From a virus (taxonomy: Duplodnaviria > Heunggongvirae > Uroviricota > Caudoviricetes): 38,017 bases of DNA. This document shows positions 1 to 3,000 of this stretch, in pieces. Each line of letters begins with the position of its first letter. The stretch's first letter is position 1. Location of the stretch: positions 1 to 38,017 of IMG/VR virus record IMGVR_UViG_2534682157_000008, one strand, 5' to 3'. Position numbers: made by a program.

Positions 1-3000
1 TATTACGGGTAGATTTTTTGCTTCAGCCACACCACAACATCCTGCTCATTTACGCCACTGGTACCCTGGCGGTCATCCGTTCTGTAAACCTGCGACAGAA
101 AAAGTCTGAATTTCTTCACATTTTCTGTACGTTCCCGTGGCAGATATCATTCCGGGGCGTTACAGTTTTTTCGGGTCAATAAAAACAAAACTCCTTGAAC
201 GTTAATCTTCATCGGTTCTGTCCCGCAGCTCCGCTAACTCTGCGGGATTTTTTTTATTTTTATCCCCGCCCGATAACCACCACTTTCCCGTCTCCGCCCT
301 CATCACGGGTGCTGATATCCTGGGATATCCGTCGTGAACCAACCAGCATTTCACCGTAAGGCACCGGCATCGGGTTACCCTGGGCAATCATGTTGTCCAG
401 TGACGAAAAATACGTGTTCTGTTTACCGTTATCCGTACTTTTATACTCCGGCGTCTTTGCCTTCGGGGCCAGCATCTGAGCCACACCACCCAGTATCATG
501 CTGGCACCCAGTGAGAACAGCATCGTGGTGGCAGTCAGCCCTCCGGCACTCAGGGCTGCGCCCCATGCCGCCAGTGTTGCACCACCAGTGAAAAATGACC
601 CGACAATCGCTGCAACCCCCAGCACCACCTGAAAAACACCATTTCCCCCGGCTCCGGCCAGTCGCGGCACAATGTGGATGACCGCTCCCTCACCCAGTTG
701 TTCGTGAAGACGGGCGTACACCGCCTCCGGTGCGGTATCCTCACCGGCAATACGTATCTGATACCAGCCTTCGTTCATCTGACCGCGGAATCCCGGCACC
801 TGCAGCGACAGGGCACGGATGGCCTCCGCTGCCGTGTTCACATACAGGCTGATGCGGCGACCAAATCGTTGTAAATCCCCGTGAAGGCAGATGCGGACCA
901 GTGGCGGTGACGCCAGACAGAATGCGTTCGTCGTTGCCATTTTTCAGAATACCTCTCCCGTTTACTCAGTTGTTCAGGTATATGGTGAAGCAGTTCACCG
1001 TTGCCACAGTAAATGGCGGCATGATTCGGCACCGATGAACCAAAGCAGCACAGCAGGATATCGCCCGCCTGTGCACAGGACGGAGACACCCGGTAAAAGC
1101 CGTTTTCCGCCAGGTTGTCCAGGTACAGGTTCTGACCGTTGCGCCACCAGTCATCCTCACGCACAAAATCCGGCAGCGTTATCCCCGCCAGATGGTAAGC
1201 ATCCCGGAACAGGGTGTAACAGTCCGTCACACCGTGTTCAAAGCGCCGTCCGGTCAGGTGCGGCACACAGCGGAACCGGTGAATTTCACCCCGGCAGACC
1301 AGCCACCAGGGCAGGGCACTCTTTATCTGCAGCCGCCGGTCCGCCTCGCTCAGCCAGGGCAGTCCACCGGGATGACTGTGGACCAGCGCCACAATCTCCC
1401 CCTGCATCTGTGCCTGCAGCCAGTCTTCCGGCGCAATACGAAAATACGCCTCCGGCTCTGCGGAGATATTCACGCAGGACTGGTACCGTTCGCCCTCCGG
1501 GGTGCTTATCACGAAGCCGCACGACTCCGCAGGCGCACACCGCCGGGCATGCGCCAGAATCACTGATTCAGTCTGTGTCATAAAACGGGATTTACTGCGA
1601 AAGTTTATTAATGGAAAGGAACCCGCCGAAATTAGCCACCATGCCGCGCATCTCACACCCGCGCATGCATTTACTGCATCTGTCCTTCCGGATATCCGTG
1701 GTAGGGTTGTCGAACTCATCCGCCACTGCCGGACCGTTATACCCGCACTCATCGCCCCGGTAATCCCACATACAGGTGTTCGCCAGCATGATGCGACCGG
1801 GAAACAGCGCCCCGTCCGTCTCCGTCGGTGTCGCCAGCACAAACGAGGCCGTCATGGCCGTCAGCGATGACATCTGCTCCACCACCCACCGGTCCGTCAG
1901 CTCCTGCTCCGGGTCGGCCTCAGGATTGCCTGCCACAAAGTTCACCGCATCCAGAAAACGCGCATACACCCGGCGACGGACCACCGTGGCACCCACCAGG
2001 CTCTGCAAATCCTCCGCCATCCCGGTGACAAGGCCGAAAAGAATTGGACACTGTCAGCGACGGCGGGCACTGCTGCCCTTCCGTTCATCTCAAAGCCGCT
2101 GCCCTCAATCGGGTACGCCTGATATTCACGCCCCTGCCAGGTCACTGGCTCCCCTTTTTCATTCAGCTCATTGCAGAAAAAATACCGCTCACCGCCCTGC
2201 ACCGTCAGGTCGATTTCCCAGAGCACCACCCGCGGTGACTGCTCTGATTTAACCGACTCGTTCAGGCTTTCTTCGTGAATATCCTGCATCAGTTCACCAC
2301 CTGCTTAAACTCCGCGCTGAACTCAACGCGCAACATCCCGACCCGCGCAGACCACCCGGCACAGGTCACCTTTATCTGCCGGTATGCATAGGGTGGCTTC
2401 CACAAAAATGCCTTCCAGCCCCCGTGCTCTGCCAGGAACGCTTCCAGATGCCGGGCCTCCTCCCGGGTCACGGAAAGCGTCACCCGGTATGTTTTCAGGT
2501 CAGCATTCAGCCCTGCCGCCATACGCTGTGAGTACCCGTCACCAAAACGCACTTCACGCACCGACGGCTGCGAGTTCACCTCCATATCCGGCTTCACTTT
2601 CCAGCGAAAGGTTTTCATCGCCCGCTCCCTGATAACATACCGCCATCACGCAACTGCAGCCGGAGTTCATCCTGCGCCCCCTTACGGGCCATGTCATACA
2701 CCGCCTTCATCAGCTGCGGCCCCGCCTGTCCGTTGATACCGTCGTTCTGAATCACCACGTGATTGTTCTGATTAAAATTAATACCTTCCGCCCGCCGCAT
2801 CTGCGCCGGACTTCCGGCACCACCCACATAACCCCCTTCCGCATAGCCGCGCATCAGGCGGTAAAGATTCCCCACACCTATCCGGCTGGTTGCCTCCTTC
2901 GTGAAGACAAACTCCCCGCGGTGAACTATCCCCGCAGGCTCATATTTGCCGCCCGTCCCCGTAAATCCTCCGGTCGCGAAATGGAAGTTCGCCGCCGCAG

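Follow-up and report, generated by a model that had tools for sequence, protein, structure and literature searches.

The L protein of bacteriophage lambda (gpL) is a minor tail protein of the tail tip, and its C-terminal cysteines are the ligands of an Fe-S cluster. The gene for this protein lies between M and K in the lambda tail module, where the order is H, M, L, K, I. Genes of this type are carried by many lambdoid prophages of E. coli, including those of Shiga toxin-producing strains.

The genome deposited as AFDV00000000 is that of E. coli STEC DG131, an O174:H8 isolate from sheep that carries stx1c and stx2b (Steyert et al, 2012; PMC3491183). The data for this strain came only from 454 Titanium FLX 3-kb paired-end libraries and were assembled with Celera 6.0 (PMC3491183). 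Its stx2b phage was stated to be inserted at ompW/yciD, and treatment with mitomycin C gave no induction of stx or Q transcripts (PMC3491183). The errors of 454 Titanium sequencing are known to be non-random, with rates above 50% at some positions and an increase of indels toward the 3' ends of reads (PMC3116506).

The window analysed here, 38,017 nt in length, corresponds to the whole of contig AFDV01000040.1 of assembly GCA_000225125.2 and represents the stx2b prophage of DG131. The original prediction for this window was that its L gene is broken by about three single-base indels, the cause being either true decay of the tail module or poor local quality of the assembly. We compared L and the remainder of the contig with closely related prophages, and our analysis makes it probable that the three frameshifts are consensus errors of the 454-only draft assembly.

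The stx2b prophage contig and its broken L gene

The window encodes an intact RIP-family StxA (20679–21707) and an 87-residue StxB ending in ...EVQFN (20403–20666), which fits stx2b. The two genes (20403–21707) lie downstream of three tRNAs, tRNA-Met(cat)/Arg/Arg (21730–21981). The closest relatives of the window adjoin ompW/yciD, in agreement with the site published for the DG131 stx2b phage (PMC3491183). We also considered that the contig might belong to a non-stx phage, since L024 and L025, the best relatives for the 15–38 kb portion, are without stx; this was rejected on the basis of the StxA and StxB genes and their position downstream of the three tRNAs. The backbone of L024 and L025 is 99.6% identical to the window on both flanks of this locus, but genes of the HTH/TerB/IraM type replace stx there; the cargo of the stx locus has thus been exchanged in a backbone that is otherwise nearly the same. 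The early region of the window also carries an inserted transposase gene of the IS4 family (IS421-like; 26954–28072), which L024 and L025 share; the annotation of L024 marks this gene as frameshifted at a C6/C7 run at which L025 agrees with the window.

The tail genes are located on the minus strand in the order H, M, L, K, I, with Pfam families that match this lambda arrangement. The H-type tape measure protein (870 residues; 2615..5227), the M-type minor tail protein encoded immediately upstream of L (2289..2618; PF05939), the K-type protein encoded immediately downstream (838..1581; JAB/MPN and NlpC/P60) and the I-type tail assembly protein (260..841) are all intact. A truncated tail module without J was considered and rejected: the contig stops in the I–J spacer, approximately 260 nt past I, relatives align through position 1, and the missing J is an effect of the contig end alone. 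This spacer (1–260) varies among the relatives, some of which match only from position ~99 or 187. A T8/T9/T7 run lies within it at 255; the window shows a T9 to T8 change here, and the length of this run also differs among the relatives.

L occupies 1592..2289 on the minus strand and was assigned by PF05100, by chain L of PDB 8iyk and by alignment to relatives. As deposited it spans 698 nt instead of 699 nt, the net loss of one base resulting from three one-base run-length changes within 39 bp. The first of these in gene order (2079..2080) reduces the plus-strand TTT of the aligned relatives to TT (AAA to AA in the gene) and shifts the frame after ...FEMNG. The second (2062..2063) reduces GGG to GG (CCC to CC in the gene), and the third (2042..2043) extends A to AA (T to TT in the gene). 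In the alignment to intact 699-nt L genes these changes correspond to GGAAAGGG becoming GGAAGGG, GCCCGCCCG becoming GCCCGCCG and CCAATCTTTT becoming CCAATTCTTTT, with no other difference at these points. The reading frame is in this way interrupted three times between codons 70 and 84. The original prediction had described four successive frame segments separated by at least three frame changes at three short motifs, all placed within 2020–2070. Three-frame translation of the minus strand over 1592–2289 recovers these same segments (frame 0 ...SGFEMNG, frame 2 KGSSAR, frame 1 PPSLTVSN and frame 2 LFGLVTGMAEDLQ...), and exactly three single-base differences from the intact genes are found at those motifs. 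Only the interval requires a minor correction: the lesions at 2042–2043 and 2062–2063 fall inside it, and the lesion at 2079–2080 lies about 10 nt beyond its end.

In place of a single uninterrupted frame, the deposited gene contains two ORFs, both on the minus strand. The N-terminal ORF (1942..2289) encodes 115 residues, of which those after residue 70 are out of frame, and an exact look-up of this product returned AFDV01000040.1 only. The C-terminal ORF (1592..2020) encodes 142 residues from an internal methionine start in ...GMAEDLQ. No second DG131 assembly was found when the broken L product and the K protein were looked up by exact match.

Despite the broken frame, the relationship to gpL is clear. 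With the three bases put back, 121 nt spanning the site agree at 100% identity with the L genes of many E. coli prophages, and the match to L is therefore not a matter of chance. Against a PF05100 cut-off of 25 bits, the 115-residue fragment scores 60.6 bits, the 142-residue fragment 203.3 bits and the repaired protein 309.1 bits. The repaired protein of 232 residues aligns with lambda gpL (PDB 8iyk chain L) from 1–232 to 1–232 with no gaps (E = 6.6e-125), and this alignment includes the gpL segment that the original prediction held to be reproduced piecewise by the three frames. The C-terminal cysteines of ...NTCMWDYRGDECGY... and ...CSKCMRGC... align with those of gpL, and the gene occupies the expected place between M and K. 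Judged from its sequence, this L is a regular representative of the lambda gpL family in every respect save the single open frame.

Comparison with related prophages

All 12 aligned relatives, which come from independent assemblies and of which seven are 99.5–99.9% identical to the window across the locus, are intact at the three lesion sites; this comparison with the L genes of related prophages had been proposed together with the original prediction. We used the identical 870-residue tape measure protein to find near-identical prophages and fetched eight independent assemblies (L016–L023), which share 99.5–99.97% identity with the window across as much as 11 kb. The intact state was present in all seven of these that reach the L lesions. 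Each of the eight also has T5 at a site in the capsid gene where the window has T4 (10122–10125). No gaps were found in the 28 pairwise comparisons of L016–L023 among themselves, which contain 0–16 mismatches each, whereas the window shows four gaps relative to each relative spanning both the L and capsid genes. In the comparison with L018, the four gaps are accompanied by only two substitutions in 9.2 kb.

Apart from this contig, the exact K protein of the window occurs in a single unrelated assembly. L026, another assembly, encodes K exactly as in the window together with an intact L of 232 residues. A search of 5426 complete genomes with the 121-nt query located the segment at 1,423 places in 670 complete E. 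coli genomes, with none of the three lesions in any of them and no match of at least 98%; the best identity of 97.6% is accounted for by the three gaps alone. In IMG/VR, the broken form of a 47-mer across the site has 0 matches versus 14 for the intact form. We also considered stepwise natural decay and looked for relatives with one or two of the lesions among the 670 complete genomes with this segment; none was found and this possibility was rejected.

Apart from the indels, L in the window corresponds to the L016-family allele at all but three positions, namely 1622, 2030 and 2033. The two substitutions at 2030..2033 (minus strand) place GGCCTT where the L016 family has GGGCTG and match another natural L allele, which is present in L026, L003 and L002. 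Positions 2030–2081 therefore form an anomalous 52-nt patch with five differences (three indels and two SNPs). Outside this patch, the capsid indel is the single other private difference in 1623–11226. All three private substitutions in L are synonymous and no private substitutions were found in 2034–11226; together these observations give no sign of relaxed selection.

Other irregularities in L were observed among the relatives. The near-identical prophage L018 (CP027328.1), from a finished genome, has a deletion of ~100 bp in L (locus ~9232–9239, equivalent to window ~1890–1990) that leaves a product of 144 residues and looks like a genuine natural lesion. L007 (VIFQ01000001.1), an unrelated and noisy assembly in one contig in which many tail genes are shattered, has the AAA to AA loss at the same site as the window, and L006 (CP043019.1) has a CC to CCC change ~20 nt downstream in L. 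The L segment around the lesions thus appears prone to homopolymer miscalls or mutations in other assemblies as well. L006–L015, which share the same 142-residue C-terminal product, were tried as the closest relatives of the 3' half of the gene; they are only 92–94% identical and are uninformative on the position of a boundary. This set includes other broken L genes in error-prone assemblies. Within it, the eight short-read contigs L008–L015, which derive from different STEC assemblies and represent different alleles, all have the ATG of ...MAEDLQ as their exact start (L position 271, window 2020). Such a shared start points to a repeat or mosaic boundary that recurs inside L among lambdoid prophages resident in the same host.

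Indel profile of the contig

Positions 21688–38017 of the contig were compared with L024, from a complete genome, and L025, which are 99.62% identical to the window in this region. We identified eight sites where L024 and L025 agree against the window, and each of them is a one-base difference in homopolymer length: A3 to A4 at 23494, T7 to T6 at 25758, A6 to A5 at 26824, A6 to A5 at 29326, A7 to A6 at 30896, T6 to T5 at 31269, T8 to T7 at 34168 and A7 to A6 at 37034. Together with the T5 to T4 change at 10122–10125, nine private one-base homopolymer indels are present outside L in the compared blocks. Their frequency depends strongly on run length, with 1 of 129 5-mers (0.8%), 3 of 43 6-mers, 3 of 13 7-mers (23%) and the only 8-mer affected, in addition to one 3-base run. 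A rate that rises with run length in this manner is the signature of pyrosequencing, and natural mutation cannot produce it at a divergence of about 0.1–0.4%.

Seven of these nine indels are located in coding sequence and break seven genes, which encode the fusion of ClpP protease and major capsid protein, a DUF968 protein, two hypothetical proteins, a Q-family antiterminator, Cro and a DUF1482 protein. This coding fraction is roughly equal to the coding density, which indicates that the indels were not filtered by selection. At the capsid site, the T4 run splits a 659-residue ClpP-like prohead protease/major capsid fusion into a protease ORF (10751..10035, minus strand) and a capsid ORF (10101..8581, minus strand). 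Given the T5 in the relatives, this T4 is most likely another 454 homopolymer error.

The L lesions do not follow the same pattern. The affected runs are of 3, 3 and 1 bases; none is a long run (at least 5 bases) such as is typical of a 454 artefact. Elsewhere in 32 kb, only one private indel was found among ~22,750 runs of three bases or fewer. Furthermore, random placement of the 13 indels would put three of them within 39 bp with a probability of ~0.0013, even at the error rate of this contig. Based on the short runs and the clustering, the error model of the contig itself rejects independent ordinary 454 errors as the full cause of the L cluster, and a local, correlated cause is required. 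Two indels only 4 nt apart, one of them outside any homopolymer, are also present at the extreme contig end (positions 9–13), where depth is necessarily low; poorly supported parts of this contig thus do show clusters of indels in short runs.

Origin of the L frameshifts and comparison with known systems

The explanation that we prefer, and consider likely, is that 454 miscalls of run length produced the three one-base changes in the L consensus. It is favoured by the 454-only Celera draft, by the run-length-dependent indels across the contig and by the absence of the lesions from near-identical independent assemblies and complete genomes. The composition of the 52-nt patch, with its two alternative-allele SNPs, points to a local patch of poor or low-coverage reads. 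We infer that a short stretch of the consensus derives from a single poor read or very few of them, which may have been read tails in a low-coverage spot, with low depth or quality at exactly 2030–2081; alternatively, another DG131 prophage with a paralogous L could have contributed a read to the patch. A local cause of this kind is in keeping with the clustered indels at the extreme contig end, with the non-random errors published for 454 Titanium (PMC3116506), and with the changes in L007 and L006 at or near the same place. The true DG131 stx2b prophage would then most likely have an ordinary intact L of 232 residues. With respect to the two causes offered by the original prediction, the comparisons speak for a locally poor-quality assembly, and decay of the tail module finds no support in them: H, M, K and I are intact, J is missing through the contig end, and 2034–11226 is free of private substitutions.

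The main competing possibility, which we regard as unlikely, is that the DG131 prophage carries three true frameshifts, acquired one at a time or in a single clustered event, and builds no tail tip. The tight clustering of the lesions in short runs is indeed a poor fit to the usual length-dependent errors of this contig, and genuine L lesions occur in related prophages, as L018 illustrates. A defective prophage would also not be implausible, given that mitomycin C did not induce stx or Q transcripts from the DG131 stx2b phage (PMC3491183). We considered a specific form of this scenario, which is slightly less probable still, in which one localised event of error-prone repair or conversion at 2030–2081 generated all three frameshifts, imported the two alternative-allele SNPs and abolished the tail tip protein of an stx2b prophage that is not inducible. 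Against real inactivation stand the absence of intermediates with one or two lesions from the 1,423 places in 670 genomes, the lack of any sign of relaxed selection and the abundance of platform-type errors in the remaining contig. Base substitutions outnumber indels by about ten to one in E. coli mutation spectra; the ratio of four indels to two substitutions between the window and L018 is far above this, and indels are absent from the comparisons of the near-identical prophages with one another.

The alternative-allele SNPs at 2030 and 2033 could also be explained by an assembly chimera, a specific form of artefact in which the contig switches between paralogous L-K-I copies inside L and the lesions mark a join of misaligned read ends. 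Consistent with this, substitutions private to the window begin at 2033 and continue downward, with none from 2034 upward, L-type genes occur in several copies per E. coli genome (median 2, up to 12 places), and the start of many STEC short-read contigs at L position 271 suggests a common repeat boundary. However, below 2030 the window resumes the L016-family allele for ~400 nt, so that the foreign part is a patch of only ~50 nt and not a whole flank. The K-gene variants and GGCCTT found beside an intact L in L026 are natural, and such mosaicism explains the substitutions equally well; in addition, no second DG131 L copy was retrieved. These observations weaken the case for a full chimera at a mosaic boundary, which we consider improbable. 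The least credible possibility is functional recoding, whereby L would be expressed through programmed ribosomal frameshifts or as two working polypeptides. The PF05100 similarity kept by both fragments is the one observation in its favour. It would demand that the frame change three times in 39 nt, for a net of -1, in an allele unique to one error-prone contig and in a gene that relatives express as a single 232-residue protein colinear with lambda gpL, and we give it almost no credence.

If the frameshifts are consensus errors, as we favour, the tail module of the DG131 stx2b prophage is normal, and the genes of this contig that look like pseudogenes (L, cro, the capsid fusion, the Q-family gene and others) provide no evidence of a defective prophage or of a cause of its non-induction. 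Apparent pseudogenes in the early region of this contig are not trustworthy, and frameshifts in the 454-only drafts of this project should be checked against near-identical relatives or reads before gene decay is called. Were the lesions real, they would represent a further case of tail gene inactivation in cryptic Stx prophages, a phenomenon that is already well known. The biological significance of the finding is small in either case.

With regard to known systems, the repaired L resembles lambda gpL in its length of 232 residues, in the H-M-L-K-I gene order and in the aligned CxxxxxxxxC ... CxxCxxxC cysteines. It differs in that the deposited frame is broken three times and in that its identity to gpL is partial, as is typical of an E. 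coli lambdoid prophage allele. With the tail pseudogenes of cryptic lambdoid prophages such as L018, the deposited gene shares the inability to yield a full-length L in a prophage reported as non-inducible. The L018 pseudogene, however, results from a single ~100-bp deletion in a finished genome, whereas the DG131 gene shows three changes of plus or minus one base with no other decay, on an error-prone platform. The likeness to 454 homopolymer miscalls lies in the 454-only data, the plus or minus one run-length change at all lesions, the other private errors in the contig, the increase of their rate with run length and the bias toward under-calls. The difference is that typical consensus errors are isolated and affect runs of at least 5 bases, whereas the L lesions are clustered in runs of 1–3. 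The finding contains no new biology and fits the known class of 454 homopolymer artefacts in platform, lesion type, contig-wide signature and uniqueness, with run length as the feature that does not fit.
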